Assembly (NCBI GenBank): GCA_017305055.1
Contig: JAFKMZ010000008.1
Span: forward strand, 111,990-175,989
Length of the DNA stretch: 64,000 bases
DNA from: Lysobacterales bacterium
Lineage (GTDB): Bacteria; Pseudomonadota; Gammaproteobacteria; Xanthomonadales; Rhodanobacteraceae
Direction of reading: 5' to 3'
The notes beneath the pieces were generated by a model. It worked only from the letters and a program-made list of their open reading frames with translations. It ran no database searches and had not been told where the DNA came from. The translations under genes were made by a program, and so were the position numbers. Positions 18,202 to 38,766 of this stretch are shown here, piece after piece (position 1 is the stretch's first letter; each line of letters opens with the position of its first letter).

Positions 18202-18240
18202 ACGGCACGGGGACAACTCCGGGAAAACCGGTGCACGGTG

Positions 18241-18304: not shown

Positions 18305-18347
18305 CGAAATCGCTGGAAAACCAGCAACGGCGCGGGCTTCGGCGTCC

Positions 18348-18382
18348 CTTAACTTATCTAACTTAAATTCTCTAACTTTTGG
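18348..18382. promoter_or_regulatory. AT-rich tract with three TAACTT repeats (candidate DNA-unwinding element or parA promoter)
   Basis: CTTAACTTATCTAACTTAAATTCTCTAACTTTTGG stands out in otherwise GC-rich DNA, about 45 nt after the iterons. Confidence 0.4.
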
Positions 18383-18469
18383 TAGAGAAGCGCCGCTGCG
18401 GTGGACAACCGCCACGCGGCCACAAACGCAGCAGCAAAAGCCCGGCTTTCCAGCATGGAGGGCCAGGCC

Positions 18470-22910: not shown

Positions 22911-23124
22911 TGACCCTAGGCGATCCGGCACAGCCATAGTTGATGGTGCCTCCATGAACTGGGTCCTGGCAACGAGCCATTAAAGGCGCCCAATGAAGGT
23001 GGAGTAGACTAAGCGGCGAAGTAAATCGGGTTGCCGTAAGCGAGATGTGGGACCATCAAGTTCATCTACTGGTTTTAAAAAAAGCCAGGCTGCACATGGA
23101 TGATAGCAATCCAATGCTGTTTGT

Positions 23125-23900: not shown

Positions 23901-24116
23901 GGAATACAATGAGTAATGATCGAAGGAGGTGCTGGGACTAACACCTGCCGCGGAAGCCGAAGGGGCTTTCCTGTCGGCCGCAAGCTGCGTTGCCGGAGAG
24001 CTGCGGCGACGGGCGTCACAGTCGTTGTTGTATCGACACTTCGGTGACACCCATGGTCGGAGCCGCGATTCCGGCATTGCTGCCGGACACCTTCATGGGG
24101 TTCAAGAGAGGGCACG

Positions 24117-25061
24117 ATGGAGCTGCGTCATCTCCGATGCTTCCTCGCCGTAGCGGATGAACTGCATTTCGCTCGCGCGGCGGAACGGTTGCACATTGAA
24201 CAGTCCCCGCTGTCGCGTACGATCAGGGAGCTGGAAGAGGATTTGGGCGTCCGGCTTTTCGCTCGCACCACGCGCAGCACTCGGCTGACATACGCAGGAA
24301 AACTGTTTCTAGAGAATGTGCCACGTGTATTTACTGCGTTGGAGCAAGCGTGCGACAGCGTAAAAGCTGCCGCGAACGGTTTTCGCAACCAGTTGCGCGT
24401 GGCTATCTCAGATTGCGTCATACCGTCGGAGTTTTCTGCCTTCTTGGCCTTGTGCCGTCAGGAGGAGCCGGAGATGGAGATACGCCTGTCCGAGGTTCCA
24501 TTGTCGCAACAAATCAAGGGACTCCATGAGGATCTGTACGACGTCGGCTTTGCCCGGTCGAACGAAGTCGGCGATGGCATCATCGCTGAAGTAGCCTGGA
24601 ACGATCCGTTGATGGTGGCCGTACCGGCCCGCCATCCGCTACTGGCCTACAAGCGCATCCCGTTGGAGGAAGTGCTGCGCTATCCATTGGTGCTTGGAGA
24701 CCCCCATGTTTGTGAAGGCTGCGCTCGGCAAGTAGAACGGGTGTTGCGACAAGTCGATCAGGAGCCGCTCATTGCGGAGCGGGTGGCGTCCATCGAGTTG
24801 ATGATGGCACTGGTGGCGGCGGGGTTCGCTTTGGGCCTCGCGGGCGCTTCACACATCACCGGCAACCGTGAATCCGGCGTGGTAGCTCGGCCGCTGGCCG
24901 GGCGCGTACCCATGCTCACGACCTATCTGCTCCGCTTGGATAACGATCCTGCTGATGCGCTTATCCGCTTCATTGCGAGGGTCGGAAGTGTCGGGGCACC
25001 TCTCAAAGGTGCGGACGTCGGGTCATTCGGTTCCAACGCCTCGGAGGACGCCGAGCCATGA
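24117..25061 (+). CDS. LysR-family transcriptional regulator
   Basis: MELRHLRCFLAVADELHFARAAERLHIEQSPLSRTIRELEEDLGVRLF is the N-terminal wHTH, followed by a LysR substrate-binding domain. Confidence 0.9.
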   Translation: MELRHLRCFLAVADELHFARAAERLHIEQSPLSRTIRELEEDLGVRLFARTTRSTRLTYAGKLFLENVPRVFTALEQACDSVKAAANGFRNQLRVAISDCVIPSEFSAFLALCRQEEPEMEIRLSEVPLSQQIKGLHEDLYDVGFARSNEVGDGIIAEVAWNDPLMVAVPARHPLLAYKRIPLEEVLRYPLVLGDPHVCEGCARQVERVLRQVDQEPLIAERVASIELMMALVAAGFALGLAGASHITGNRESGVVARPLAGRVPMLTTYLLRLDNDPADALIRFIARVGSVGAPLKGADVGSFGSNASEDAEP

Positions 25062-25303
25062 AAATAGTCGTATTGCTTTTCGTTGCCGTGACGCTGGCCG
25101 CATGCAACAGGGCCGCACCCACCGACACGGTGGATTCACTGGTGGCGCACCCCGACCACCTGCATGGGATCGAGCGGCAATGCGCCAACAATGACGCGCG
25201 GGTATCGGCTGCGGAGTGCGAACTTGCGTCCGAGGCACGGCGCAAACTGTTCATGGGCAATGGCACGCAGTACACCCCGCCTAAAAACCCGCCGAAGTTC
25301 TGA
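25058..25303 (+). CDS. EexN/TrbK-like entry-exclusion lipoprotein (cargo copy)
   Basis: Has a lipobox (VAVTLAAC). It shares the blocks TVDSLVAHPDHL...RQC and a C-terminal ...RK.F.G.G with the ORF at 32802-33095. The start overlaps the LysR stop (ATGA). Confidence 0.65.
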   Translation: MKIVVLLFVAVTLAACNRAAPTDTVDSLVAHPDHLHGIERQCANNDARVSAAECELASEARRKLFMGNGTQYTPPKNPPKF

Positions 25304-25523
25304 ATCGCGGTTACGCAACATAGCATCTCGATTCGTAGCTCGCTACGTCCGCTTGCGCACGGCTGCGCCGGGATGTGCCGCACAACGCCCCGGCGCGCAA
25401 TCTTGCTTTTTCGATCATTTTCATCACCATAAAAGTCTTTGACCGGTGCTGACCACGGCACCGATGCTCTTGGTTGTGCGGCACGTTTTCGCCGCATGAA
25501 GAAAGGGAAAGTCGGAGGCCGGT

Positions 25524-27527
25524 GTGAACGGTACCAGTGTGCTGTTCGGCCAGGTGCTGACGGTGTTCGGCATCGTGGTCACGGGAACTTGGGGAGCCAC
25601 CCAATGGACCGCCGCACATCTGGGCTATCAGCTACGCCTGGGCTCGCCCTGGTTCGACTGGCTCGGCATTCCGTTCTATTACCCGTGGCGGCTGTTCCAG
25701 TGGTGGTACTGGTACGACGCCTATGCGCCGCACCTGTTCCTGGTAGGCGGGGCCATCGCAGCGGCCAGTGGCCTCTCTGCCGCCGGCGTGGCCATCGGCA
25801 TGTCGGTATGGCGTGCGCGCCAGTCGCGACTCGTCACGACGTACGGTTCCGCGCGCTGGGCCGACGCCCGCGACATCCATCGGGCAGGGCTGGACAAACC
25901 CGCCGGCGTCTTTCTCGGGCTGCATGACCGGCAGTATCTGCGCCATGACGGCCCGGAACACGTCTTGACCTTCGCGCCGACGCGCTCGGGCAAGGGCGTG
26001 GGCCTCGTCATTCCCACGCTGCTCTCCTGGCAGGCGTCGGCCGTCATTCACGACATCAAGGGCGAAAACTGGCAGATCACCGCCGGCTGGCGTTCGCGCT
26101 TCTCGCACTGCCTGCTGTTCAATCCCACTGATGCGCGCTCGGCCGCGTACAACCCGCTGCTCGAAGTGCGGCGTGGCGCCTGCGAAGTGCGCGACGTGCA
26201 GAACATCGCGGACATCCTGGTCGATCCTGAAGGCGCGCTGGAGCGGCGCAACCACTGGGAGAAGACTTCACACGCGTTGCTCGTCGGGGCCATCCTGCAC
26301 GTGCTCTACGCCGGCGAAGACAAGACGCTGCGCGGCGTCGCCAACTTCCTCTCCGACCCCGCGTGCCCGTTCGAGGTAACGCTGCATCGGATGATGACAA
26401 CGCGCCACCTGGGCGATGCGCCGCATCCCGTCGTTGCGTCCGCTGCGCGCGAGGTGTTGAACAAGGCGGAGAACGAACGCTCCGGCGTGCTCTCCACGGC
26501 CATGTCGTTCCTTGGCCTGTACCGCGATCCGACGGTGGCGGAAGTCACCTCGCGCTGCGACTGGCGCATCGCCGATCTGATCGCCTCCGACCACCCCGTT
26601 TCGCTGTACCTGGTGGTGCCGCCTTCGGACATCTCGCGCACGAAGCCGCTCATCCGTTTGATCCTCAACCAGATCGGTCGGCGTCTGACCGAATCGCTCG
26701 ACGGTAGCGACGGCATCGAGCGGCGCCACAAGTTGCTGCTGATGCTCGACGAGTTTCCGGCGCTTGGGCGCCTGGACTTCTTCGAGACGGCGCTGGCCTT
26801 CATGGCGGGCTACGGCATCCGCAGCTTCCTCATCGCGCAGTCGCTCAACCAGATCGACAAGGCCTACGGCCAGAACCATTCGATCCTCGACAACTGCCAT
26901 GTGCGGGTGACGTTCGCCACCAACGACGAGCGCACCGCCAAGCGCATCTCCGACACGTTGGGCACCTCGACTGAGCTTCGCGCGCAGCGCAACTACGCAG
27001 GCCACCGGCTCGCACCGTGGCTCGGGCACCTGATGGTGTCGCGCCAGGAAACGGCGCGACCGCTGCTGACGCCCGGCGAGGTCATGCAGCTCCCGCCCGA
27101 CGAAGCCGTGGTGATGGTGTCCAGCGTGGCGCCGATCAAGGCGAAGAAGCTGCGCTACTACGCCGACGCCAACTTCAAGCGCCGTGTGCTGCCGCCTCCG
27201 GTACTTGCCGACGAGCGCTATGCCGATACGCCGCCCGCACGGCCCGACGACTGGAGCGGGCTGGCGATTCCTGCTGTCCCGGTGGTACCGGCTGTGGACG
27301 ACCTGACCGAGAGCGGTATCGGCTCGGGCACTTCCGATGACGGCGGCCTGCGCCGGCAACCGGAACTCGCCGACGTTGCCGAATACAGCCCCGAACAGCA
27401 GGCCACCGACAGCGACCTGGCGCTGCTAGATGACGACGATCCGCCGCTGCCTGGCGAGTTCAGCCCGGCCATGCAGCGTACGTCGCGATTGGCCTCACTC
27501 GATCAACACGACGGGATCGAACTATGA
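25524..27527 (+). CDS. traG: Type IV coupling protein TraG/VirD4
   Basis: N-terminal TM helices, Walker A FAPTRSGKGVGLVIPTLL, and Walker B region LLLMLDEFPALGRL. It is 667 aa with a GTG start. Confidence 0.9.
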   Translation: MNGTSVLFGQVLTVFGIVVTGTWGATQWTAAHLGYQLRLGSPWFDWLGIPFYYPWRLFQWWYWYDAYAPHLFLVGGAIAAASGLSAAGVAIGMSVWRARQSRLVTTYGSARWADARDIHRAGLDKPAGVFLGLHDRQYLRHDGPEHVLTFAPTRSGKGVGLVIPTLLSWQASAVIHDIKGENWQITAGWRSRFSHCLLFNPTDARSAAYNPLLEVRRGACEVRDVQNIADILVDPEGALERRNHWEKTSHALLVGAILHVLYAGEDKTLRGVANFLSDPACPFEVTLHRMMTTRHLGDAPHPVVASAAREVLNKAENERSGVLSTAMSFLGLYRDPTVAEVTSRCDWRIADLIASDHPVSLYLVVPPSDISRTKPLIRLILNQIGRRLTESLDGSDGIERRHKLLLMLDEFPALGRLDFFETALAFMAGYGIRSFLIAQSLNQIDKAYGQNHSILDNCHVRVTFATNDERTAKRISDTLGTSTELRAQRNYAGHRLAPWLGHLMVSRQETARPLLTPGEVMQLPPDEAVVMVSSVAPIKAKKLRYYADANFKRRVLPPPVLADERYADTPPARPDDWSGLAIPAVPVVPAVDDLTESGIGSGTSDDGGLRRQPELADVAEYSPEQQATDSDLALLDDDDPPLPGEFSPAMQRTSRLASLDQHDGIEL

Positions 27528-27988
27528 GCCGGTATCGCCTCAACCTCTTCATTGCACCTGAGCACGCCAAGCGTCTCGACGAGCTGGCGGCGAAGAAGGG
27601 CGTCTCCAAGTCATCCATCTTGGCGGCAGCGCTCGCATCGTGGCTGTCGCCGGACGCTGGCGACCAGCGCGAAGCGGCCATTGCCAAACGTCTCGATCGG
27701 CTCTCGCGCCAGTTCGAGAAGCTGGAGCGCGACCAGAACATCGAGATCGAAACGATCGCTTTGTTCGTGCGCTACTTCCTGACGGTCAGTACCCCGGTTC
27801 CGGAGGCTCACCAGGACGCCGCCCGCGCGCAGGGCCGGGCGCGCTTCGAGCAGTTCGTCGAACAGCTCGGCCGCCGCCTGCTGCGCGGGCACAGCCTGGT
27901 GCGCGACGTGGTGGAGGAACTGAACCCCGAGGCCGCGCAGCTCGACGCCGCAGCGACTTCGGCCGACGGCCAGGAGCGTGCGGCGTGA
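27524..27988 (+). CDS. Ribbon-helix-helix (CopG-like) protein between traG and trbB
   Basis: MSRYRLNLFIAPEHAKRLDELAAKKGVSKSSILAAALASWL looks like an RHH N-terminus. It occupies the conserved slot in Tn4371-like ICEs and overlaps both neighbouring genes. Confidence 0.6.
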   Translation: MSRYRLNLFIAPEHAKRLDELAAKKGVSKSSILAAALASWLSPDAGDQREAAIAKRLDRLSRQFEKLERDQNIEIETIALFVRYFLTVSTPVPEAHQDAARAQGRARFEQFVEQLGRRLLRGHSLVRDVVEELNPEAAQLDAAATSADGQERAA

Positions 27989-29004
27989 ACGCGGTCGTTG
28001 CGCTCGGGACGTCACTCAGCGCCGCGACGTCGCTGGACCGACGCGTCCGCATGCTGCGCACCGCGATGGGGCCGCTGATCGCTGCCGCGCTTGAAGACCC
28101 GGACGTGGTGGAGATCATGCTCAACCCGGATCACACGCTCTGGGTCGATCGGCTATCCACGGGCCGTGCCCCACTGGGCGCGGAGCTGTCCGAAGAGGAT
28201 GGCGAACGCATCATTCGCCTGGTGGCTGCGCACGTCGGCGCGGAAGTCCATCGCGGCCGACCGCTGTTGACCGCTGAACTCCCCGAGACCGGCGAACGCT
28301 TCGAGGGCATCCTGCCGCCGGCGGCGCCCGGCCCGGCCTTTGCGCTCCGCAAGCGCGCAGTGGGCGTCATTCCGCTGGAGCGCTACGTCACCGACGGCAT
28401 GATGACCACCGAGCAGGCCGCGTTCCTGCGCACTGCGGTACGCGAGCGGCAGAACGTCCTGGTCGCCGGCGGCACCAGCACCGGCAAGACCACGCTCGCC
28501 AACGCCTTGCTGGCGGAGATCGCCGCCACGGGCGATCGCGTCCTGGTCCTCGAAGACACGGTGGAACTGCAATGCGTGGCGCGCGATCACGTGCCGCTGC
28601 GCACCCGCGCGGGCGTCGTTTCCATGACCGAGCTGGTGCGGGCGACGATGCGCCTGCGTCCCGATCGGGTGATCGTCGGCGAGGTGCGCGGCGGTGAAGC
28701 GCTGGATCTCATCAAGGTGTGGGGCACGGGCCATCCGGGCGGCATCGCCACGGTGCACGCCGGCTCGGCGCACGGTGCGTTGCTGCGCCTGGAGCAACTG
28801 ATCCTCGAAGTGGCTTTGAATCCGCCGCGCGCGCTGATCGCCGAGGCGGTCAATGTCGTCGTGCACCTCGCCGGTCGCGGCAGGACGCGCCGCGTCGAGT
28901 GCATCGCCCGCGTCATCGGTTTCGACGCAGCGGGCTACCAGCTATGCGACGCCGTGCCGTCGGCCGCACATCCCGACCCGATTTCCTCTGGAGAACCCAC
29001 ATGA
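27985..29004 (+). CDS. trbB: P-type conjugative transfer ATPase TrbB (VirB11 family)
   Basis: Walker A VAGGTSTGKTTLANAL, then RPDRVIVGEVRGGEALD and GHPGGIATVHA. The GTG start overlaps the upstream stop (GTGA). Confidence 0.9.
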   Translation: MNAVVALGTSLSAATSLDRRVRMLRTAMGPLIAAALEDPDVVEIMLNPDHTLWVDRLSTGRAPLGAELSEEDGERIIRLVAAHVGAEVHRGRPLLTAELPETGERFEGILPPAAPGPAFALRKRAVGVIPLERYVTDGMMTTEQAAFLRTAVRERQNVLVAGGTSTGKTTLANALLAEIAATGDRVLVLEDTVELQCVARDHVPLRTRAGVVSMTELVRATMRLRPDRVIVGEVRGGEALDLIKVWGTGHPGGIATVHAGSAHGALLRLEQLILEVALNPPRALIAEAVNVVVHLAGRGRTRRVECIARVIGFDAAGYQLCDAVPSAAHPDPISSGEPT

Positions 29005-29369
29005 GCCGCGTTCCTGATTCACGCTTTTCTGTAAATCCGCTCGTGTGCCTGCACGGATTGGTCCAGACCGTTGATCGCGGTGTGGCAACGGCTATCGCTC
29101 TGTTGGCAGTGGTCGGAACGGCAAGGGCTGCCGGCTCGAATATGCCGTGGGAAGCACCGTTGCAGTCCATCCTTGATTCGATCCAGGGGCCGGTCGCCAA
29201 GATCATCGCCGTCATCATCATCATCGTGACGGGTCTCACGCTCGCCTTCGGTGACACCAGCGGCGGGTTCCGGCGGCTGATCCAGATCGTGTTCGGCCTG
29301 TCGATCGCCTTTGCCGCGTCTTCCTTCTTCCTGTCGTTCTTCAGCTTCTCCGGGGGGGCCGTCGTATGA
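29001..29369 (+). CDS. trbC: TrbC/VirB2 pilin
   Basis: A long leader followed by two hydrophobic helices (IIAVIIIIVTGLTLAF..., IVFGLSIAFAASSFF). Confidence 0.85.
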   Translation: MSRVPDSRFSVNPLVCLHGLVQTVDRGVATAIALLAVVGTARAAGSNMPWEAPLQSILDSIQGPVAKIIAVIIIIVTGLTLAFGDTSGGFRRLIQIVFGLSIAFAASSFFLSFFSFSGGAVV

Positions 29370-29635
29370 GCACGGCGCCTGATCTTCCGGGCTTCGAGGT
29401 GCCGCTGCACCGCGCGCTCACCGAACCGATCCTGATGGGCGGTGCACCACGCACGGTGGCGATCGCCAACGGCACGCTGGCCGCGGCCGTCGGGCTTGGC
29501 CTGCAACTGTGGTTGCCCGGCATCGCGCTGTGGCTGGTGGGCCATTCACTCGCGGTCTGGGGCGCGAAGGTCGATCCGCAGTTCATGCAGGTCTTCGCGC
29601 GGCACCTCAAGCACAAGTCGCTGCTGGACGTGTGA
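29366..29635 (+). CDS. trbD: TrbD (VirB3 family)
   Basis: 89 aa. Contains PLHRALTEPILMGGAPR and then a TM hairpin. Its position and overlaps with neighbours fit. Confidence 0.85.
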   Translation: MSTAPDLPGFEVPLHRALTEPILMGGAPRTVAIANGTLAAAVGLGLQLWLPGIALWLVGHSLAVWGAKVDPQFMQVFARHLKHKSLLDV

Positions 29636-29645
29636 GGACGGCACC

Positions 29646-32072
29646 ATGTTGAATCTCGCCGAATACCGCCAGCGTCCCGCACTGCTTGCCGACTGGCTGC
29701 CGTGGGCCGGGCTGGTCGCGCCCGGCGTGGTGCTGAACAAGGACGGCAGCTTCCAGCGCATGGCGCGCTTTCGCGGACCGGACCTGGACAGCGCAACCCA
29801 AGGCGAGCTGGTCGCCACGACCGCGCGGCTTAACAACGCGCTGCGCCGCCTGGGGTCGGGCTGGGCGCTGTTCGTCGAGGCGGAGCGCCGGCCAGCGGCC
29901 GACTATCCGCACTCAGCGTTTCCCGAGGCGCTCTCCTGGCTGGCGGACGAGGAACGGCGGGCAGCGTTCGAACAAGCCGGCAGTCACTACGAAAGCGGCT
30001 ATCACCTGACGCTGGCCTATCTGCCGCCGGAGGAATCGCGCGCGCGTGCCGCGAAGCTTCTGTACGAGAACACGCCCACGTCCGGGGTGGACTGGCGCGA
30101 ACGGCTCGCCGCATTCATCGCCGAGACCGGCCGCGTGTTCGACCTGCTCGACGGCGTGATGCCCGAGATCGCGTGGCTGGACGACGCCGAGACGCTGACC
30201 TATCTGCACGGGTGTATCTCGACGCGGCACTACTCGCTGTCGGTGCCCGAAGTGCCATTCCACCTCGACGCGTTCCTGGCGGATTCGGCGCTCGTCGGAG
30301 GCCTGGCGCCCATGCTGGGCGACCAGCACCTGCGCGTCGTGACGGTGCGCGGCTTCCCGACCTCGACTTGGCCGGGCCTGCTCGACGACCTGAATCGCTT
30401 GGGCTTTGCCTATCGCTGGTGCACCCGCTTTCTATGCCTGGACAAGGCCGAGGCGGAAAAGGAGCTGACGCGGCTGCGCCGGCAGTGGTTCGCCAAGCGC
30501 AAGAACGTCGTGGCGCTGTTGCGCGAGACCATCTTCCAGCAGGAGTCGCCGCTAGTCGATACGGATGCGAGCAACAAAGCGACGGATGCCGACGCCGCCC
30601 TGCAGGAACTCGGCGGTGACCAGGTGGCGTTCGGCTACGTGACCGCGACCGTCGTCGTGATGGACGCGGAGGCGGACGCGGCCGACGAGAAACTGCGCCG
30701 GGTCGAACGCGCGATCCAGGGGCGTGGCTTCGTCACGATCCCCGAGACGCTCAATGCCATCGAAGCCTGGCTGTCGTCGCTTCCCGGCCACGCCTACGCC
30801 AACGTGCGCCAGCCGAGCATTTCCACGCTGAACCTCGCGCACCTGATGCCGGTCTCGGCCGTGTGGGCCGGGCCGGAGAAGAACGACCACCTCGACGGGC
30901 CGCCGCTGATCGTTACGCGTACGGCGGGCGACACGCCGTTCCGGCTGGTGACGCACATCGGCGACGTCGGCCATACGCTGGTGGTGGGGCCGACCGGCAT
31001 GGGCAAGTCGGTGCTGCTCGCCGTGCTGGCGTTGCAGTTCCGACGGTATCCGGGCTCGCGCATCTTCGCCTTCGACATGGGCCGCTCCATGCGCGCCACC
31101 ATCCTGGGGCTGGGCGGCGAACACTACGACCTCGGCAGCGACGGTGCGATCGCGTTCCAGCCGCTCGCGCGCATCGACCGCGAGGGCTATCTCACCTGGG
31201 CGGCCGAATGGGTCGAAGGCCGCCTGCGGCAGGAAGGTGTGGCCGTCGGCCCGGACGAGAAGGCCGCCGTATGGTCGGCGCTCGCCAGCCTTGCCGGCGC
31301 ACCGACCGAACAGCGCACGCTCACGGGCCTGTCCGTGCTGCTGCAATCCAATGCGCTGCGCCAGGCGCTGGCGCCGTACGTGCTCGGCGGTGCCCACGGA
31401 CGGCTGCTCGATGCCGACCACGACCAGCTCGGCGTGGCCGACGTGCAGGGCTTCGAGATGGAAGAGCTGATGGCGAGCCGCGCGGCGGTGCTCGCCGTGC
31501 TGGGGTATCTCTTTGCGCGCTTCGAGGAGCGCTTCGATGGCGCGCCCACGTTGCTGATCCTCGATGAGTCCTGGCTGTTCCTCGACGACCCGGTATTTGC
31601 CGCGCGCATCCGCCAGTGGCTCAAGACGCTGCGCAAGAAGAACGTGAGCGTCATCTTCGCCACGCAATCGCTGGCCGACATCAAGGACTCGAGCGTCGCG
31701 CCCGCGATCATCGAGAGCTGCGCGAGCCGCATTTTCCTGCCGAACCCGCAGGCCACCGAGCCGCAGATTCGGACGATTTACGAGGGCTTTGGCCTGAACA
31801 GCCGGCAGATCGAGATCGTCGCCACCGCCGAACCCAAGCGCGACTACTACTACCAGTCGCGTCTCGGCAACCGCCTGTTCGACCTCGACCTCGGGCCGGT
31901 CGCACTCGCGTTTGCTGGCGCCTCCATGCCGCAGGACCAGCGTGACATCGACGCCGTGCGCGCCAGCGCCCAGCCGGGCGACTTCGCCGCGAGCTGGCTG
32001 CGTCACCGCGGCCTCGACTGGGCCGCCGACCTCATTCCTTCGTTTCCCAAACCTACGGAGATTCGGCCATGA
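29646..32072 (+). CDS. trbE: TrbE (VirB4 ATPase)
   Basis: Walker A VVGPTGMGKSVLL and Walker B LLILDESWLFL. About 808 aa. Confidence 0.9.
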   Translation: MLNLAEYRQRPALLADWLPWAGLVAPGVVLNKDGSFQRMARFRGPDLDSATQGELVATTARLNNALRRLGSGWALFVEAERRPAADYPHSAFPEALSWLADEERRAAFEQAGSHYESGYHLTLAYLPPEESRARAAKLLYENTPTSGVDWRERLAAFIAETGRVFDLLDGVMPEIAWLDDAETLTYLHGCISTRHYSLSVPEVPFHLDAFLADSALVGGLAPMLGDQHLRVVTVRGFPTSTWPGLLDDLNRLGFAYRWCTRFLCLDKAEAEKELTRLRRQWFAKRKNVVALLRETIFQQESPLVDTDASNKATDADAALQELGGDQVAFGYVTATVVVMDAEADAADEKLRRVERAIQGRGFVTIPETLNAIEAWLSSLPGHAYANVRQPSISTLNLAHLMPVSAVWAGPEKNDHLDGPPLIVTRTAGDTPFRLVTHIGDVGHTLVVGPTGMGKSVLLAVLALQFRRYPGSRIFAFDMGRSMRATILGLGGEHYDLGSDGAIAFQPLARIDREGYLTWAAEWVEGRLRQEGVAVGPDEKAAVWSALASLAGAPTEQRTLTGLSVLLQSNALRQALAPYVLGGAHGRLLDADHDQLGVADVQGFEMEELMASRAAVLAVLGYLFARFEERFDGAPTLLILDESWLFLDDPVFAARIRQWLKTLRKKNVSVIFATQSLADIKDSSVAPAIIESCASRIFLPNPQATEPQIRTIYEGFGLNSRQIEIVATAEPKRDYYYQSRLGNRLFDLDLGPVALAFAGASMPQDQRDIDAVRASAQPGDFAASWLRHRGLDWAADLIPSFPKPTEIRP

Positions 32073-32797
32073 AGAAGACCTGTCTGGTCGCTGCGGCTGC
32101 TGTGTTGTTCACGTGTTCGTCCGCGAGCTTCGCGCAGTGGGCGGTGTTCGATGCGGCCAACTACACCCAGAACCTTTTGACCGCTGCGCGCGAGCTGCAG
32201 CAGATCGACAACCAGATCCAGCAGTTGCAGAACCAGGCCACGATGCTGGTGAACCAGGGTCGCAATCTCACGAGCCTTCCCTACAGCGCGCTCGCACAGT
32301 TGCAAGCCACGCTGGCGAGCACCAACCAGTTGATCGCGCAAGCGCAGGGACTGTCCTTCAACGTCGCGCAGTCGCAGGCGATGTTCAATCGGCTGTATCC
32401 CAGTTCTTACGGTGCCAGCGCCTCCAATGCCCAGATGGTGCAGGACGCGCAAACGCGCTGGCAAACCTCGGTGCAGGCGCTGCAGACCGCGACGCAGATA
32501 CAGTCGCAAGCCGCGCAGAACTTGCTGTCGGATCAAAGCGTATTAAGCAACGTGGTGACGCAAAGCCAGGGCGCGGTTGGCGCCTTGCAGGCCAGCCAGG
32601 CCACCAACCAGTTGCTCGCGCTGATTTCGCGCCAGGCGATCCAGGCCCAGCAACTCGCGGTGTCGCAGAACCGGGCGACGGCCCTGGACCAGGCGCGGGC
32701 GGCAGCCGACGAGGCGCAGGCCGAGCAGGTGCGCACGCGCTTCATCGGCAATGGCCCGCAATACACGCCGCAGCCGGTGGACTTCTACGGGAACTGA
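32069..32797 (+). CDS. trbJ: TrbJ (VirB5-like)
   Basis: Signal peptide, a Q-rich coiled-coil region (LQQIDNQIQQLQNQATML), and the expected position. Confidence 0.85.
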   Translation: MKKTCLVAAAAVLFTCSSASFAQWAVFDAANYTQNLLTAARELQQIDNQIQQLQNQATMLVNQGRNLTSLPYSALAQLQATLASTNQLIAQAQGLSFNVAQSQAMFNRLYPSSYGASASNAQMVQDAQTRWQTSVQALQTATQIQSQAAQNLLSDQSVLSNVVTQSQGAVGALQASQATNQLLALISRQAIQAQQLAVSQNRATALDQARAAADEAQAEQVRTRFIGNGPQYTPQPVDFYGN

Positions 32798-32801
32798 TGG
32801 C

Positions 32802-33095
32802 ATGCGTCGCGCGCCACTCCTGTTTGCCACGGTGCTGCTGACCGCTTGCGGCCGGCACGCGCCGGCGCTGACCGTCGACGCACTTGCGCACGACCCGCAC
32901 CAGCTCTACGCGCTGCGCCGCCACTGTGCGCGCTCACCCATGCGCATCAACCGGGCGACCTGCCGGATGGCGAACGCCGCCTACGCCAAGCGCTTCTTCC
33001 TGGGGTTGGGTGGCCCCGATGAATACCAGACGCTGCGCTCCCTCCCGCCAATCCCGGAGAGCTTCGAGCCGGACGCTGCCGGGGCGCCGCCGTGA
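32802..33095 (+). CDS. trbK: TrbK/EexN-like entry-exclusion lipoprotein (backbone copy)
   Basis: Has a lipobox (TVLLTAC) and lies between trbJ and trbL. It is a paralogue of 25058-25303. Confidence 0.65.
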   Translation: MRRAPLLFATVLLTACGRHAPALTVDALAHDPHQLYALRRHCARSPMRINRATCRMANAAYAKRFFLGLGGPDEYQTLRSLPPIPESFEPDAAGAPP

Positions 33096-34336
33096 ACGAC
33101 CTGTCCGTCATCGACCAGTTCCTGGCCGTCTTCTCGCGGTACATCGACTCGGGCTTCGGGTTGCTGCACGGCGAGGTCATGTATCTGTCGGCCACGCTGA
33201 TCGTCATCGACATGACGCTCGCCGGCCTGTTCTGGGCGATGGGCGGCGAAGAGGTGCTGGCGAAGCTGATCCGCAAGACGCTCTACATCGGGGCGTTCGC
33301 CTACATCATCGGCAACTTCAACATGCTCGCCGGCATCGTGTTCCGCTCGTTCGTCGGCCTCGGCCTGCTTGCGTCCGGTTCGACCGTCAGCGTCGGCGAC
33401 TTCCTGCAGCCAGGGCGGCTCGCCGCGATCGGCGTCACTGCCGGCGCACCGATCCTGCAGCAGGTCGGCACGATGTCGCATGGCATCACGGCGGTCTTCA
33501 GCAACTTCGACATGATCGTGGTGCTGCTGTTCGCCTGGGCCGTCGTGGTCATCAGCTTTTTCATCCTGGCGATACAGCTTTTCGTGACGCTGGTGGAGTT
33601 CAAGCTGACCACGCTTGCCGGGTTCGTGCTGGTGCCGTTCGCACTCTGGAACAAGACTTCGTTCCTGGCAGAGAAGGTGCTCGGCAACGTGGTGTCCTCG
33701 GGCGTCAAGGTGCTGGTGCTCGCCGTGATCGTCGGCATCGGTTCGACGATCTTCGGGCAGTTCCAGTCGCCGGCCGGCACCGATCCGTCGCTGAACCACG
33801 CACTCGCCCTCATGCTGGCTTCGCTCACGATGCTGGGCCTGGGCATCTTCGGACCGGGTATTGCCACCGGCCTGGTGTCCGGGGCGCCGCAGCTTGGCGC
33901 GGGAGCCGCTGCCGGTACGGCGCTCGGCGCGGCAGGTCTTGCGGTCGCAGGCGGTGCCGCCGTGGCGACCGGGGGTGCCGCAGTGGCGGCCGGAACCCGC
34001 CTGGCCGCTCGTGGCGCGGTGGGCGCTGCGCGCACCGCCAGCGGTGCTGCCTCCGCGTATCGCGCGGGAGCCGCCGCATCGGGCGCAACCGGAGCCAGGG
34101 CATTCGGGGCGGGCATGGCGAGCGCCGCCCGCGCCGCGAGTAGCCGCGTGGCGTCCGCCGTTGGTGCAGGCGGCGCGTCCCCTACAACCGGCAACAGGGC
34201 ACCGGACTGGGCGCAGCGCCTGCAACGCCGGCAGCGTTTCTCGCAGGGCGCTTCGACCGCCGCGCACGTCGTGCGCTCGGGCGATCACGGCGGTGGCGGC
34301 GCCGCGCCCGAGCTGCGCGATCCCTCGAACGATTAA
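33092..34336 (+). CDS. trbL: TrbL (VirB6 family)
   Basis: Multi-TM protein with an Ala/Gly-rich C-terminal tail, and the expected position. Confidence 0.85.
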   Translation: MNDLSVIDQFLAVFSRYIDSGFGLLHGEVMYLSATLIVIDMTLAGLFWAMGGEEVLAKLIRKTLYIGAFAYIIGNFNMLAGIVFRSFVGLGLLASGSTVSVGDFLQPGRLAAIGVTAGAPILQQVGTMSHGITAVFSNFDMIVVLLFAWAVVVISFFILAIQLFVTLVEFKLTTLAGFVLVPFALWNKTSFLAEKVLGNVVSSGVKVLVLAVIVGIGSTIFGQFQSPAGTDPSLNHALALMLASLTMLGLGIFGPGIATGLVSGAPQLGAGAAAGTALGAAGLAVAGGAAVATGGAAVAAGTRLAARGAVGAARTASGAASAYRAGAAASGATGARAFGAGMASAARAASSRVASAVGAGGASPTTGNRAPDWAQRLQRRQRFSQGASTAAHVVRSGDHGGGGAAPELRDPSND

Positions 34337-34348
34337 CGGAGACCCATC

Positions 34349-35053
34349 ATGCGCTTTAAACGACCCGGCGTCCGCTACAGCGATACACCCGCACCTGCAA
34401 CGCCTTATCAGGCGGCCGCGCAGGTGTGGGACGAGCGCTTGGGCAGTGCCCGCGTGCAGGCGAAAAACTGGCGGTTGATGTCGTTCGGCTGCCTGGGCAT
34501 TGCGCTGCTGATGGCTGCTGGTCTCGTCTGGCAGTCCGGCGAGTCGCGCGTCACGCCCTACGTGGTCGAAGTCGATCACGCGGGGCAGGTGCGTGCGGTC
34601 GGGGCGGCGATAACGCCGTACAAGCCCACCGACGCGCAGATCGCCTGGTATCTCGCGCGCTTCATCGCCGACGTGCGCTCGCTGTCCATCGACCCGATCG
34701 TGGTGCGGCAGCACTGGCTCGAAGCCTACGGCTACACCACCGACAAGGGTGCGGCGACGCTGAACGCCTACGCCCGCGCCCACGATCCGTTTGCCCATAT
34801 CGGGCAGGACTCCGTATCGGTGGATGTGACCAGCGTGGTGCGCGTGAGCGACGCCTCGTTCCAGCTGCGCTGGACCGAGCAGCACTACCACGAGGGCACG
34901 CCCACGGGCAGCGAGCACTGGACCGCGATGCTCACCCTCGTCATGCAGACCCCGCGCACCGAGCAGCAGGTGCGCCGCAACCCCCTCGGCATCTACGTCA
35001 ACGGCCTGTCCTGGAGCCGCGACCTGGATGCACCCCAAGGAGCCAAGAAATGA
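34349..35053 (+). CDS. trbF: TrbF (VirB8 family)
   Basis: Single N-terminal TM plus a VirB8-like domain (PYVVEVDHAGQVRAV..., WTAMLTLVMQ). Confidence 0.85.
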   Translation: MRFKRPGVRYSDTPAPATPYQAAAQVWDERLGSARVQAKNWRLMSFGCLGIALLMAAGLVWQSGESRVTPYVVEVDHAGQVRAVGAAITPYKPTDAQIAWYLARFIADVRSLSIDPIVVRQHWLEAYGYTTDKGAATLNAYARAHDPFAHIGQDSVSVDVTSVVRVSDASFQLRWTEQHYHEGTPTGSEHWTAMLTLVMQTPRTEQQVRRNPLGIYVNGLSWSRDLDAPQGAKK

Positions 35054-36057
35054 AACGTGCCATGACTGCCATTGCCGTCCTCGGCGCACTGGTCGCGCTG
35101 TCCGGCTGCGCGACGCAAGGCAAGCCGCCACCCGCCATCTCGTTGGACGAGCCGGTGCAGGCCGAGTCACTGCCCGAACCAGCCAAGCCGGTCGCGGTGG
35201 TGGAGGTGCCCAAGCCCTTGCCGCTGCCGGGCCAAATGAAGCCATTGCCCGGCAAGGCCGACGCAAAGCCCGCTGCGGAATCGGCCGACCCGAAAACACG
35301 CGTCGAACGGGCCAATGCCGAAGCCAGCATGGCGCCCACCCGCGAGGGCTACATCAACGCGATCCAGGTCTGGCCGTTCTCCGACGGTGCGCTGTACCAG
35401 GTCTATACGAGTCCCGGGCGCGTGACGGTGATTCGCCTGCAGCCCGGCGAGGATCTCGTGACAGTCGCCGCCGGCGACACGGTGCAATGGATCGTGGGCG
35501 ATACGGCCAGCGGCAGTGGTGCGGATCGGCGTGTCGCCGTGATGGTCAAGCCGGTGCGCGTGGGCATCAAGACGAACCTCGTCATCACGACCAGCCGGCG
35601 CACCTATTTGCTGGAACTCACGTCCACTCCCAAAGCGTGGATGGCCTCGGTGTCATGGGAGTATCCGAGGGACCAGATGCTGGCCCTGCAGGCCCAGACG
35701 CAGGCTGCCGATGCCCAGGCGCCGGTGGCTGGCGGGCTGTCGCTCGACCAGTTGCATTTCCGCTATGCGATCACGGGTGACGATCCGCCGTGGAAGCCGG
35801 TGCGAGCCTTCGACGATGGCCGGCACGTCTACATCCAGTTCCCGGCCGGTATCGCGCAGGGAGAGTTGCCGCCACTGTTCGTGGTCGGGCCGGACGGCAA
35901 GGGCGAGCTGGTGAACTACCGGTTCCGCGCACCCTACGACGTTGTGGATCGCCTGTTCGGCGCGGCCGAGTTGCGGCTGGGTGGAAAGAAGGCCGCCGTG
36001 GTGCGCATCGAGCGCACCGATGGCGTGGCGGCGGGAGCAGGCCATGGACACGACTGA
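35050..36057 (+). CDS. trbG: TrbG (VirB9 family) lipoprotein
   Basis: Has a lipobox (LVALSGC) and VirB9 repeats (VWPFSDGALYQVYTSPGRVTVIRLQPGE, DGRHVYIQFP). Confidence 0.85.
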   Translation: MKRAMTAIAVLGALVALSGCATQGKPPPAISLDEPVQAESLPEPAKPVAVVEVPKPLPLPGQMKPLPGKADAKPAAESADPKTRVERANAEASMAPTREGYINAIQVWPFSDGALYQVYTSPGRVTVIRLQPGEDLVTVAAGDTVQWIVGDTASGSGADRRVAVMVKPVRVGIKTNLVITTSRRTYLLELTSTPKAWMASVSWEYPRDQMLALQAQTQAADAQAPVAGGLSLDQLHFRYAITGDDPPWKPVRAFDDGRHVYIQFPAGIAQGELPPLFVVGPDGKGELVNYRFRAPYDVVDRLFGAAELRLGGKKAAVVRIERTDGVAAGAGHGHD

Positions 36058-37336
36058 CCGCGAAGCCCAGCCGACGCCGAAAGTCGCGCCCGAGGGGATG
36101 GCGTTGCGTGCAGCGCCGCGCGCGGTCACGCGGCTCAACCGGCGCACGCTCGCGGTGTCCAGCACGCTCCTGGTGGTCGCGGTTGCCGCAGCCTCGATGT
36201 GGGCACTGCAATCGAAGGGCAGACGTGGCCCGGCCGATCAGACCAATCTTTACCACGTTGATCGCGTCGCCAAGGCCGATGACCTCGACCAGTTGCCTGC
36301 CGACTATTCGAAGCTGCCCGGGAAGCCCGCGCCGGCACCCGCCGCGAGCGTGCCTCAGCTTGGGCCGCCGCTGCCCGGTGACATAGGGGCAGCTTCGGCT
36401 GTGACGCCGTTGCCAAATGGCGCCGTGGCTCCGGGGCCATCGGCTGAGAGTGTCGATCGGCAACGCCAGGCCGAGGAGATTGCGCGCTCGGCAGTGTTCT
36501 TCCGCACCAGCAGCAACAGCGGCAAGCAAGAAGCGGCTGCGGCCGTAGCACCTGCTGCACCGCCAAGCGGTGCCCTGGCCAGCCCGTTCAATCCGATGGG
36601 TGCCGGCCCGGCTTCCACGGCGGCACAGCCCAACGATCCGACGGCTCTCCAGAACCGGCAAGGCCAGAAGGAAACGTTTATGGCCCAAGGCGGCGATGCC
36701 GCTACGAGCAATACCGGCACCCTGCAGGCGCCGCCTTCGCCGTACACCGTGATGGCAGGCACCATCATCCCAGCGGCGCTAGTGACGGGCATCAACTCCG
36801 ACTTGCCGGGGCAGATCATCGCCGAGGTGACGCAGCCGGTGTATGACACAGCGACGGGCCACTATCTCTTGATCCCGCAGGGCTCGCGCCTGATCGGCCG
36901 CTACGACAGCCAGGTCGCCTTCGGGCAGCGCCGCGTGCTGCTGGTGTGGCTGCGTCTGGTGCTGCCCGACACCTCGTCGATTGCGCTGGACAAGCTGCCC
37001 GGCATCGACCCGGCGGGCTATGCCGGTTTGGAGGACGGCGTGGACTGGCACTGGAGCCGCATCCTGGCGGGTGCGGCGCTGTCCACGTTGCTGGGGGTCA
37101 ACGCCGAGCTGGCCGTCTCCAATCAGAATCAGGCCAACGGCAACACCGTGATCGCTTTGCGCGACAGCGCGCAGGACACCACCAACCAGATCGGGCAGGA
37201 GATCACGCGCCGCAACCTGAGCGTCCAGCCGACGCTGACCGTGCGGCCGGGATTCCAGGTCAACGTCATGGTGAACAAGGACCTGGTGCTGCGGCCGTAC
37301 CAGCCGCTCTTTATCCAGCGAGGTCCAATGCCATGA
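36044..37336 (+). CDS. trbI: TrbI (VirB10 family)
   Basis: TM segment, Pro/Ala-rich linker, and a C-terminal VirB10 barrel (GTIIPAALVTGINSDLPGQIIAEV...). Confidence 0.85.
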   Translation: MDTTDREAQPTPKVAPEGMALRAAPRAVTRLNRRTLAVSSTLLVVAVAAASMWALQSKGRRGPADQTNLYHVDRVAKADDLDQLPADYSKLPGKPAPAPAASVPQLGPPLPGDIGAASAVTPLPNGAVAPGPSAESVDRQRQAEEIARSAVFFRTSSNSGKQEAAAAVAPAAPPSGALASPFNPMGAGPASTAAQPNDPTALQNRQGQKETFMAQGGDAATSNTGTLQAPPSPYTVMAGTIIPAALVTGINSDLPGQIIAEVTQPVYDTATGHYLLIPQGSRLIGRYDSQVAFGQRRVLLVWLRLVLPDTSSIALDKLPGIDPAGYAGLEDGVDWHWSRILAGAALSTLLGVNAELAVSNQNQANGNTVIALRDSAQDTTNQIGQEITRRNLSVQPTLTVRPGFQVNVMVNKDLVLRPYQPLFIQRGPMP

Positions 37337-37593
37337 GCGCACCACCGAAAAAGCTGCGGCTCGGGCCGCTGCCCGACACACAGACCGTCAAGCTGGCCTT
37401 TGCGTGTCCGGCCCGGCTCAAGGCCGACCTGGACCGCTACGCGGCGCTGCACGCACAGACCTACGGTGAGGTAGTGGATGCCGTGACGCTGATACCGCTC
37501 ATGCTGGAAGCATTCATGGCAGCGGATCGGGGATTCAAACGGTCGGGCGTATCGTCGAGTCGTCCTAGAAACGAGAAAGCCGCCCCTGTATGA
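37333..37593 (+). CDS. DUF2274 domain protein (terminal gene of Trb-type ICEs)
   Basis: KKLRLGPLPDTQTVKLAFACPARLKADLDRYAALHAQTYGE...LIPLMLEAFMAADRGF. The stop codon sits in the loop of the hairpin at 37579-37604. Confidence 0.8.
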   Translation: MSAPPKKLRLGPLPDTQTVKLAFACPARLKADLDRYAALHAQTYGEVVDAVTLIPLMLEAFMAADRGFKRSGVSSSRPRNEKAAPV

Positions 37594-37604
37594 ACAGGGG
37601 CGGC
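37579..37604 (-). terminator. Rho-independent terminator of the tRNA-Leu gene (11-bp stem, 4-nt loop)
   Basis: GCCGCCCCTGT-ATGA-ACAGGGGCGGC. On the minus strand the hairpin starts 7 nt after the tRNA CCA end and is followed by UUUCUCGUUUCU. Confidence 0.6.
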
Positions 37605-37611
37605 TCCGAAT

Positions 37612-37933
37612 TGGTGCCCGAGGTCGGACTCGAACCGACAAGCCTTGCGGCGGGGGATTTTCTTCCCACTTCGGCTTTCGCCGCCGACGTTTCCAAAGAA
37701 ACGGCGTTCGTGGTCTGGAGCACGCCTTCACCATAGCCTTGCGGCCGTAGGTGCCCGCCGTCTGCTCTCTACACCTTCCCTCGAACCTTTCGGTCCGAGG
37801 GCTTGGCTCGGCGTTAGCTCGGACTCTCGTCCAGGGCCTTCACCGAGTTTGACGGGCTTCACCTCGGGGGTTTCCCCCAGAGGGCTCAAATTTGGTCTGA
37901 GTCCCCTGCGTCTACCAATTCCACCACTCGGGC
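37612..37933 (-). tRNA. tRNA-Leu(CAA) gene interrupted by a group I intron (exons 37899-37933 and 37612-37661)
   Basis: The joined exons are GCCCGAG UG GUGG AAUUGGUAGA CGC A GGGGA CUCAAAA UCCCC CGCCGCAAGGCUU GUCGG UUCGAGU CCGAC CUCGGGC A CCA. This is an 85-nt type II cloverleaf with a long variable arm and an encoded CCA. Confidence 0.85.
37662..37898 (-). ncRNA. Group I intron, IC3-like, 237 nt, no ORF
   Basis: It contains blocks shared with the Azoarcus tRNA-Ile and cyanobacterial tRNA-Leu(UAA) introns. These are the guide UUUGAGCCC, GUCAAACUCGG, CCGAGCCAAGCC, GGAAGGUGUAGAGAGCAGACGG, GCUAUGG, a GCGAAAGC tetraloop hairpin in a 3' extension, and a terminal G directly before the 3' exon AAAAUCCCC. 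Confidence 0.85.
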
Positions 37934-38122
37934 AGGACGCACATGATACTTCAACTACCTGCTACTACTGACTTGGAGTCAGCCTGCGCTGCACTGGCTC
38001 CCAGTTGGCTCCTAGCTCGAAAACTCGCATTCCCGATCAGGAGCCGCTTTTCCTCGTAAACTTTTGCCTGGCGCGGGCTGGCGGACGATGAACCCAACTT
38101 AACCATAGGTAGGAGTACCTAT

Positions 38123-38160
38123 TTTTGAGTCCGCCGCGTCTACCATTCCGCCACACCGGC
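38123..38160 (-). pseudogene. 5' fragment (38 nt) of a second, sequence-distinct tRNA-Leu(CAA)
   Basis: GCCGGUG UG GCGG AAUGGUAGA CGC G GCGGA CUCAAAA, then non-tRNA sequence (the hairpin ATAGGTA-CTCC-TACCTAT). I see no matching anticodon 3' strand, T-arm or acceptor 3' strand downstream. Confidence 0.7.
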
Positions 38161-38184
38161 ATTGAGGTGCGAATTATGCCGGGT

Positions 38185-38766
38185 TCACTGCACGCGGTCG
38201 AGTCCGAGCACGCGCATGTCGCGCGTGTAGCCGTGGCCGTCGGGCAGCGGCTGGAACACCGAGCAGCGCAGCATCGGGCCGGCATAGACATGCAGGCTGA
38301 CGGTGACCGCGTCGTCGCTTGGATTGCGGATGCTGTGGTATTCGTGCGGCGGGATCAGGCTGCCGGCGGAACCCGCTGCGGCGTGGATCGAGCCAATCGC
38401 GCTGAACTGCCAACGCTCGTCCTCGTGGCCCTGCAGGTCGTATTGCTGGATGTCGAGCGCGCCGTGCCATACGCCCTCGACGCACCACATGCCGTCGTGG
38501 TCATGGATCGGCGTGCCTTGGCCCGGCGCCCAGGTCATCGCCACGATGCAATAGCCGTGCTCCTCGCTGCGATACAGCTCGCGGCGCGCGTAATGTTCGG
38601 CGCAGGGGACGAACACACAATCGGGCAGCTGCACGTCGCCTGAGCTCATGAAGTGGCACAGGCTCGCGCGCAGGCTGCTGGTGAGCGCCGCGGCATCGGG
38701 CTGGCCGACGGCGAAGTCGATGGCGTCGATGAGTTGCCGGCTACCGGGAAATGGCAGGTTGAGCAC
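38185..38766 (-). CDS. Cysteine dioxygenase-like cupin protein
   Basis: Cupin metal motif GTPIHDHDGMWCVEGVWHG...PPHEYHSI, about 190 aa. Confidence 0.65.
   Translation of the reverse strand: MLNLPFPGSRQLIDAIDFAVGQPDAAALTSSLRASLCHFMSSGDVQLPDCVFVPCAEHYARRELYRSEEHGYCIVAMTWAPGQGTPIHDHDGMWCVEGVWHGALDIQQYDLQGHEDERWQFSAIGSIHAAAGSAGSLIPPHEYHSIRNPSDDAVTVSLHVYAGPMLRCSVFQPLPDGHGYTRDMRVLGLDRVQ

Follow-up and report, generated by a model that had tools for sequence, protein, structure and literature searches.

Does a tRNA gene that is split by a group I intron and lies beside the genes of a conjugative element belong to the chromosome or to the element? This question is raised by a stretch of 64,000 nt from a Lysobacterales bacterium (contig JAFKMZ010000008.1, positions 111,990 to 175,989; the window in what follows), in which an intron-split tRNA-Leu(CAA) gene is found at the right end of an integrative and conjugative element (ICE) of the Tn4371 family. 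We consider it likely that the window covers the right junction of an ICE which breaks the tRNA-Leu(CAA) gene of its host and brings along an intron-split substitute that splices.

When introns are allowed, ARAGORN calls a tRNA-Leu(caa) at c[37612,37933] with a 237-nt intron from gene position 36. The joined exons fold, again in ARAGORN, into an 85-nt type II tRNA-Leu(CAA) with a long variable arm, A73 and an encoded CCA. The intron is inserted after C34, between anticodon nucleotides 34 and 35. All coordinates and sequence blocks that the original prediction quoted for the minus strand (37933-37612) are present base for base, and its claim of an IC3-type group I intron in the anticodon loop is borne out by the intron-aware call, by covariation and by the identity of the core. 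It had also been correct in that 237 nt leave no room for an endonuclease gene.

The split gene is invisible to standard annotation. No tRNA is reported in the 64-kb window by ARAGORN without the intron option, and no RNA family by Rfam at gathering thresholds. In a sensitive scan of 1.2 kb, Intron_gpI (RF00028) is by far the best match (37908-37745, 30.3 bits, E = 1.5e-5). As the gene is missed, such strains would appear to be without tRNA-Leu(CAA) and such ICE ends would be mis-mapped. Intron-aware ARAGORN also calls a tRNA-Ala(tgc) with a 124-nt intron (56109-56329, minus strand). This is probably a false positive because it overlaps an open reading frame (ORF) obtained with a codon-bias filter (55861-56637, plus strand) and has no Rfam support.

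The split gene is not the only tRNA-Leu(CAA) sequence at this site. The 5′ half of a second, intron-free gene lies upstream of it in the same orientation, so that the split tRNA is found about 187-190 nt inside the ICE from the crossover core. At this remnant and at the right junction no tRNA is called by ARAGORN. Three relatives with the same synteny (L139, L140 and L141; cysteine dioxygenase (CDO) gene 71-78% identical) have an intact, intron-free tRNA-Leu(CAA) gene 24-28 nt after the CDO gene. These intact genes match the remnant in 38 of 38 nt and then continue with TCCGCT..., where the window has ATAGGTACTCC. The host flank beyond the junction consists of the ccm operon, a hydrolase gene and the CDO gene, with CDO homologues from Rhodanobacter and Dyella; judged by this flank, the host is a Rhodanobacter-like gammaproteobacterium. 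Exon 1 is of betaproteobacterial type (GCCCGAG...GGGGACTC) and unlike the host remnant; betaproteobacterial-type exons of the split tRNA thus occur within a gammaproteobacterial host.

Comparable loci were collected from one genome per species with a 20-mer of the intron core (AAGGTGTAGAGAGCAGAYGG), which gave at least 119 loci from beta- and gammaproteobacteria. The right-end arm, as we call the sequence between core and split tRNA in the window, also precedes the split tRNA, in conserved form, at 12 further CAA loci of both classes; arm-bearing CAA loci occur, among others, in Bordetella, Achromobacter, Burkholderia, Comamonas, Xenophilus, Hydrogenophaga, Polaromonas and Rhodanobacter. In most of these 12, and in more than 20 loci of UAA type, arm and split tRNA stand behind host 5′ halves that differ from host to host. 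There are also three cases (L018, L087, L091) where core, arm and split tRNA lie beside non-tRNA DNA. The target in L018 reads like an hsdM-like ORF, its translation resembling the N-terminus of hsdM. DUF2274/TrbI genes follow the split tRNA in 20 listed loci, all 20 of which have an upstream half or core, while ICE genes are found in none of the 78 listed loci without an upstream half. The terminator hairpin after the split tRNA is likewise kept across ICE-linked loci.

From the empty sites, the conserved arm, the insertions into non-tRNA DNA and the association with ICE genes we conclude, by sequence comparison, that the half-gene is the target of the ICE, which is inserted in the anticodon loop of a single-exon host tRNA-Leu(CAA), and that the split gene belongs to the ICE as cargo. 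The split gene had originally been described as directly abutting the element. It lies inside the ICE instead, the actual target being the separate intron-free gene (5′ half at 38160-38123), and the suggested link to a conjugative element able to spread the intron is supported. As a different reading of the locus, a giant split gene made of the host 5′ half and the 3′ exon on the ICE was considered and rejected; its acceptor strands mismatch at two of seven pairs. The features of the window are collected in Table 1.

Table 1. Features of the window at and around the right junction of the Tn4371-family ICE.
Feature	Position	Strand	Remarks
Exon 1, ICE-borne tRNA-Leu(CAA)	37899..37933	-	35 nt, ends at anticodon C34 (ARAGORN, introns allowed)
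Group I intron, subgroup IC3, 'Leu.3Cg' class	37662..37898	-	237 nt; RF00028 match, Bba346 identity, covariation
Exon 2, ICE-borne tRNA-Leu(CAA)	37612..37661	-	50 nt, encoded CCA (ARAGORN)
Host tRNA-Leu(CAA) 5′ remnant, intron-free type	38123..38160	-	38 nt, GCCGGTGTGGCGGAATGGTAGACGCGGCGGACTCAAAA; cut in anticodon loop
Crossover core CTCAAAA	38123..38129	-	7-nt host anticodon loop; sole sequence common to right and left junctions
Right-end arm (attR / P′ arm)	37934..38122	-	189 nt, non-tRNA, between core and ICE-borne tRNA
Palindrome ATAGGTACTCCTACCTAT	38105-38122	-	In arm, beside core
Tandem GGAGCCA-N4-GGAGCCA	37995-38012	-	Once in window, 0.06 expected by chance
Intrinsic terminator hairpin	37576..37607	-	Directly 3′ of split tRNA, before convergent DUF2274 gene
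Promoter-like site TCGACC-17-CATAAT	38173..38201	-	Upstream of remnant; only such site upstream of ICE-borne tRNA
P1	37901-37896 with 37890-37885	-	
Internal guide sequence UUUGAG	37885..37890	-	Read from sequence
P2	37883-37862	-	
P3	37856-37851 with 37759-37754	-	
P4	37846-37841 with 37813-37808	-	
P6/P6a	37807-37773	-	
P7	37767-37763 with 37722-37718	-	
P8	37753-37729	-	
P9/P9a/P9b	37713-37666	-	
omega-G	37662	-	Last intron nucleotide; invariant in alignment
Cysteine-dioxygenase-family gene (CDO_I)	38185..38766	-	PF05995; ccm operon synteny; chromosomal side of junction
DUF2274 gene	37333..37593	+	Last ICE protein-coding gene, convergent with tRNA
Tn4371-family ICE backbone	14135..37593	+	Pfam scans and gene tables
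Cargo region (apparent)	124..13614		RND pump, CNNM/CorC protein, MFS transporter, ChrB, ChrA, EamA transporter

The right junctions of CAA type read ...GGACTCAAAA followed directly by ATAGG, and the arm sequences ACTCAAAAATAGGNACT and GACTTAAAATCTGTTTTGTCAAG are usable as probes. Loci of UAA type have a like layout with a different arm, their junction being ...GGACTTAAAATC/TGTTTTGTCAAG. The UAA-type core CTTAAAATC is the reverse complement of a published att sequence, GATTTTAAG, which is the 9-bp attL/attR repeat of ICE_KKS102_Tn4677 and ICEbphKF708 (PMC6563109, PMC11448139) and corresponds to the anticodon loop of tRNA-Leu(UAA). A tRNA-Leu has been named as the main target of ICEs of the ICE_KKS102_Tn4677 type and the Tn4371 family (PMC9960961, PMC6563109, PMC11448139). 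The tandem GGAGCCA motif is kept in right arms of both CAA and UAA type, and a related pair is found just upstream of int in the left ends described below. The tandem motif and the palindrome beside the core are probably binding sites of the integrase, with predicted roles as arm-type and core-type sites, respectively.

A left end was searched for by a metagenome scan with the 3′ end of the native gene (GGTTCGAGTCCTNTCACCGGTACCA). Most matches are intact genes. Five contigs (L147, L157, L197, L205, L247) have the 3′ half only, starting from CTCAAAATCCGC and preceded by a conserved element end (X), so that these junctions read X/CTCAAAATCCGC. In each of the five, a tyrosine integrase of 450-470 amino acids (Arm-DNA-bind_3 and Phage_integrase domains) starts about 90-180 nt from the core and reads inward. 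Its identity to the integrases that are encoded by plasmid-borne Tn4371-like elements amounts to 60-64%; in these elements int is 14-52 kb away from the DUF2274 gene of the opposite end in the plasmid records with coordinates compared (e.g. CP109756.1, with int at 381116-382288 and DUF2274 at 424195-424440). No tRNA is called by ARAGORN at the five left junctions, and the flanks of the core are not tRNA-like there. Neither the right junction in the window nor the left junctions on the other contigs thus re-form a tRNA. The left end of the ICE in the window would be expected to read int ... CTCAAAATCCGCT ... GGTTCGAGTCCTNTCACCGGTACCA, and the excised circle would read X-CTCAAAA-ATAGGTACTCC at attP, with the split tRNA aboard. 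Excision to a circle and conjugative transfer have been shown experimentally for ICE_KKS102_Tn4677 alone (PMC11448139).

At least three other types of element ends were seen to abut displaced 3′ halves of Rhodanobacter-type tRNA-Leu(CAA) genes (L177 and L225; L182, L190 and L222; L174 and L175), with the cut at or near the anticodon loop in these as well. Judging by these ends, the anticodon loop of the Rhodanobacter-type tRNA-Leu(CAA) is a shared integration hot spot.

Whether the intron has the structure of a group I ribozyme was addressed with an IC3 structure drawn by hand on the model of Williams' alignment, with P3/P7 treated as a pseudoknot and with helices P1, P2, P3, P4, P5/5a, P6/6a, P7, P8/8a and P9/9a/9b. 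It was scored on 41 distinct tRNA-Leu(CAA) introns. Standard pairs occupy 93.4% of the pair cells, as compared to 31-42% after a shift of the 3′ partners by 1-3 columns, and the observed pairing values were reached by none of 500 shuffles. Two-sided changes affect 32 pairs (258 cells), mainly in P2, P5a, P6a, P9, P9a and P9b. P3, P4, P6, P7 and P8 are invariant or nearly so, with 97-100% paired, and all core helices can be drawn, which agrees with the P3-P9 core that had been postulated from the window. P3 and P7 differ from those of the Azoarcus tRNA-Ile and cyanobacterial tRNA-Leu(UAA) introns through paired changes; P7 is GAGCA/UGCUC in the window intron and GACUA/UAGUC in the others. The minimum free energy of the intron has a z-score of -3.76, and the unconstrained minimum-free-energy fold gives helices at the positions assigned to P2, P4, P5, P6a, P8, P9a and P9b. 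The covariation supports a conserved ribozyme fold that is under selection.

The GAG of the internal guide sequence pairs with C32-U33-C34 of the exon, which results in a C-G pair at the cleavage site, while its UUU pairs either with AGA of the intron (P1) or with AAA of the 3′ exon (P10), so that both exons can be reached in the sequence as read. The guide pairs C-G, U-A and C-G do not vary among the 41 sequences. All 41 thus have C34-G at the 5′ splice site in place of the canonical U.G wobble, and it is this pair that sets the Leu.3Cg class apart. In the sister introns of tRNA-Leu(UAA), the identical GAG guide pairs with CUU, giving U.G. Neither the C-G pair nor the upstream half-tRNA had been mentioned in the original prediction. 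Efficient splicing of the intron would have to proceed from this Watson-Crick pair. A further pairing concerns the end of the host remnant, ...GGACUCAAAA (38123-38134), which could pair perfectly with the guide UUUGAG (37885-37890). If the host promoter reads through, the remnant may serve as a cryptic upstream 5′ splice site, resulting in a chimeric tRNA with two mismatches in the acceptor stem.

The intron class itself is not new. A total of 72 'Leu.3Cg' introns, all from Proteobacteria, are reported in a preprint (Williams 2020, bioRxiv 10.1101/2020.01.27.920355). Identity of the window intron amounts to 90.3% with the seed member Bba346.Leu.3Cg and to 60.5% with the Azoarcus intron. The window intron interrupts a tRNA-Leu after the third anticodon-loop nucleotide, has C at position -1 and an omega-G, and occurs in a proteobacterial host, on which basis it is assigned to the Leu.3Cg class. 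As this class was catalogued in 2020, the claim that an intron in the CAA isoacceptor had not been described is wrong.

Among the 119 species-representative loci listed, there are at least 43 split tRNA-Leu(CAA) genes and at least about 72 split tRNA-Leu(UAA) genes, including three that ARAGORN mis-parsed as Phe, while four loci could not be parsed. The survey of related loci and ICE ends that had been suggested thus yielded both split CAA genes and arm-bearing ICE ends. In 31 of the listed CAA split genes there is neither an upstream remnant nor an ICE gene nearby, and these possibly belong to the chromosome as residents. Among the loci that lack a half, CAA genes of Steroidobacteraceae and UAA genes of Achromobacter, look like resident chromosomal split genes. 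A split tRNA-Leu(CAA) without an upstream half-tRNA is also found on a Mycetohabitans genome contig (L085), and the megaplasmids of the fungal endosymbionts Mycetohabitans rhizoxinica and M. endofungorum (H1-H9) have a match to the split tRNA of the window, mostly at places where no gene is annotated.

Related split genes were also seen on plasmids and in phages. Plasmid pCTX-M3 (NC_004464.2, 61823-62121; L124, 2995-3293) has an unannotated split tRNA-Leu(UAA) of the form CUU/...g/AAAA with a 221-nt group I intron (36.8 bits). In the one record examined, it adjoins an AAA-ATPase (tmrB-like) gene and the gentamicin-resistance gene aac(3)-IId. A match of about 250 nt to this split gene occurs on about 1300 other plasmid records from Escherichia, Klebsiella, Salmonella, Acinetobacter, Pseudomonas and others, and it may mark the source organism of the aac(3)-IId resistance segment. 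The IMG/VR contigs L131, L132, L133 and L135 are large phages with tRNA arrays which include intron-split tRNAs with the core 20-mer; L135 codes for a tRNA-Leu(taa) with a 325-nt intron and a tRNA-Arg(tct) with a 194-nt intron. No ICE was found in the scan of viral contigs, which returned split tRNA-Leu(UAA) genes with neither ICE arm nor host 5′ remnant upstream, in addition to the phage tRNA arrays.

According to the mechanism that we propose, a precursor would be made, perhaps by transcription that starts at the host tRNA promoter (38201-38173) and continues through the remnant and the arm, and would end at the hairpin at 37607-37576. The CATAAT box of this promoter-like site is also present in the three empty-site relatives. 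The intron would fold as a P1-P9 ribozyme and remove itself by two guanosine-dependent transesterifications, using the C34-G pair instead of U.G and the omega-G at 37662. The ligated 85-nt tRNA would then replace the gene that the ICE has destroyed, and the intron would owe its spread to transport by the ICE and not to homing.

Several points weigh against this reading. No sigma-70-like promoter was found in the arm, and the way in which the split gene is expressed is therefore deduced. The need for a substitute tRNA is deduced as well. In the covariance-model check that had been proposed for the intron, its 30.3 bits fall below the RF00028 gathering threshold of 50; the sister tRNA-Leu(UAA) intron (36.8 bits) is likewise under this cut-off. 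According to Williams 2020 (10.1101/2020.01.27.920355), the Rfam group I seed contains no bacterial sequence, and cut-offs of 18-20 bits were used in that study. It is also pointed out there that the Tetrahymena intron loses its activity on mutation to C-1:G, and that the Leu.3Cg introns need to be tested for splicing. Since the loci were chosen by an intron 20-mer, a statement that every such ICE end carries the intron would be biased. No integrase is found among the scanned ORFs of the window; integrase and left end lie outside of it. Left ends of Tn4371 type, with int, CTCAAAA and the host 3′ half, were seen on other contigs only. None of the contigs has both ends of one element, and no protein encoded by the 37 kb of ICE in the window has a tblastn match in the left-end contigs. 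Between the downstream flanks of the empty sites and the left-end contigs there is a single 70-nt match, so that the two junctions cannot be placed at one locus.

The alternatives differ in what they make of the half-gene and of the C-G pair. If the split tRNA-Leu(CAA) were a host chromosomal gene, with the ICE integrated classically at or near its 3′ end, this would agree with the distance of only 19 nt between the DUF2274 gene and the tRNA 3′ end and with the many ICEs that target tRNA 3′ ends, as is stated for the Tn4371 family (PMC9960961). It is scarcely credible in view of the truncated host-type tRNA-Leu(CAA) upstream, which is identical to the intact gene of ICE-free relatives, and of these three relatives having the intron-free gene and not the split one at the locus. 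Arm and split tRNA travel together behind varied host sequences, including non-tRNA DNA, and the exons are of betaproteobacterial type in a Rhodanobacter-like host. In addition, classical 3′-end integration would have left a second copy of the 3′ end or the anticodon region of the tRNA, and none occurs elsewhere in the window; single-mismatch matches at 57537 and 9554 are at chance level. We also regard it as highly improbable that half-tRNA and arm are relics of an older, unrelated island which came to lie close to the present ICE by hot-spot coincidence. While this would be in line with the finding that, in related bacteria, at least three further types of element use the anticodon loop, there are 20 listed loci in which the half (or the core) is followed without a break by arm, split tRNA, terminator and DUF2274/TrbI, a perfect association. 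The GGAGCCA motif of the arm recurs in related form upstream of int in Tn4371-type left ends, and the UAA-type core is the experimentally defined att of ICE_KKS102_Tn4677.

A third possibility concedes that the split gene belongs to the ICE and takes it for a dead passenger: the C-G pair would block splicing, the ICE would merely inactivate tRNA-Leu(CAA), and this would be tolerated as tRNA-Leu(UAA) reads UUG. It is known that tRNA-Leu(CAA) is dispensable in E. coli. The missing internal promoter points in the same direction, as do the effect of C-1:G in the Tetrahymena intron and the call for testing of the Leu.3Cg class (Williams 2020). Nevertheless, we consider this unlikely, as a decaying pseudogene is not expected to show such conservation: the core is invariant, peripheral pairing has been kept through compensatory changes (258 cells among the 41 sequences, which represent two classes of proteobacteria), omega-G and guide are invariant, and the exons still yield a canonical tRNA. 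The 31 CAA split genes without remnant or ICE genes, which are maybe resident in the chromosome, also argue against a dead passenger. An ICE which destroys its target gene and supplies a spliced substitute thus remains the preferred reading.

Given this reading, it may be asked why the substitute has kept its intron. In nine betaproteobacterial hosts, the attB in use has exactly the sequence of the ICE-borne anticodon stem-loop after splicing, GGGGA-CTCAAAA-TCCCC (GGGGACTCAAAATCCCC), and the intron, at CTC/AAAA, lies in the middle of the 7-bp crossover core. The integrase would therefore find a perfect target in an intron-free copy at a distance of 190 bp from attP; such a copy would be expected to cause self-deletion or to act as a secondary integration site. 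We tentatively suggest, as a possibility rather than a probability, that the intron has been retained for interrupting the ICE's own target, so that the site is gone from the DNA and is restored only in the RNA. An element could in this way carry a working copy of the gene that it destroys. If this is true, resident tRNA-Leu genes with an intron would be protected from these ICEs, which could explain why introns in tRNA-Leu(UAA/CAA) are common in beta- and gammaproteobacteria. The persistence of bacterial tRNA introns is an old question, and masking of a recombination site at the DNA level would provide a testable selective reason for their retention.

The remaining ICE genes conform to the backbone of the Tn4371 family (repA-parA, relaxase, traR-traG, trbB-trbI, and DUF2274 at the right end). 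Their order is DUF736, RovC-like regulator, HTH_17, RepA, ParA, a DUF3363-domain protein that is taken to be the relaxase, a LysR regulator, TraG, TrbB, TrbE, TrbL, TrbF/VirB8, TrbG/CagX, TrbI and DUF2274. In a search outward to the left end of the ICE, no match was recorded for the AcrB-like cargo protein, and the only match for RepA lay on a contig of 2.6 kb. The genes trbI/DUF2274 are shared by plasmid-borne Tn4371-like elements, and DNA matches to plasmids always stop short of both arm and split tRNA. At the right end in Pandoraea paaa there is no split tRNA, and the one on a Hydrogenophaga plasmid has only about 390 nt of unannotated sequence beside DUF2274 and no split tRNA. Between repA and parA of the ICE, at 18239-18307, there are three direct repeats of 22-23 nt (TATCGTGCTATCAGGCGTG...) which resemble iterons or a partition site.

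When compared to known systems, the intron is closest in architecture to the compact IC3 introns. The intron of the Azoarcus pre-tRNA-Ile(CAU), for which self-splicing and a crystal structure are established, has nearly identical J3/4, P4, J6/7 and J8/7 and also a GAAA tetraloop on P2; it differs in the tRNA and the position in the loop, in its U.G splice-site pair and in a shorter P9. The cyanobacterial and plastid tRNA-Leu(UAA) introns (Leu.3Ug), which self-splice and are inherited vertically, and their proteobacterial relatives share position 34/35, the IC3 core and the GAG guide with the window intron at 51-65% identity, but Leu.3Ug introns have U34 and the canonical U.G pair. The proteobacterial UAA introns also share the unusual P7 (GAGCA/UGCUC) with the CAA introns, and about one third of those listed are located at ICE ends. 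Full agreement is found with the Leu.3Cg introns, which have the same tRNA, the same insertion point (CUC/a...g/AAAA), C-1:G and omega-G (Williams 2020). The accessible text of the preprint provides counts and a covariance model and contains nothing on genomic context, ICE linkage or adjacent truncated host genes.

On the side of the element, ICE_KKS102_Tn4677, ICEbphKF708 and the Tn4371 family have the same backbone and gene order, with traR (LysR) before traG and a trb operon ending in DUF2274. The ICE in the window differs from ICE_KKS102_Tn4677 and ICEbphKF708 in its site, the CAA loop (CTCAAAA), and in its chromate and efflux cargo. It resembles the target-regenerating tRNA islands (Islander/TIGER, PMC4383910) in having a tyrosine integrase, a crossover at the symmetric anticodon stem-loop and a compensation for the damage. 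Classical islands carry the displaced part of the gene and re-form a fusion gene at one junction (PMC4383910), whereas there is no tRNA at the junctions of the present ICE type. It carries a whole gene, the target-sequence copy of which is interrupted by an intron.

In the literature on ICEs, group I introns and tRNA-Leu this arrangement was not found to be described, in a search that did not cover the primary ICE_KKS102 paper (Ohtsubo 2012, PMC3416211). What seems to be new is that the split gene travels inside an ICE that has cut the intron-free copy of the host. With an ICE family of broad host range, the endonuclease-free tRNA introns of bacteria would thereby have a concrete means of spreading horizontally, and the destruction of the target would be compensated in an unusual way, by a whole substitute gene and not by a fragment.

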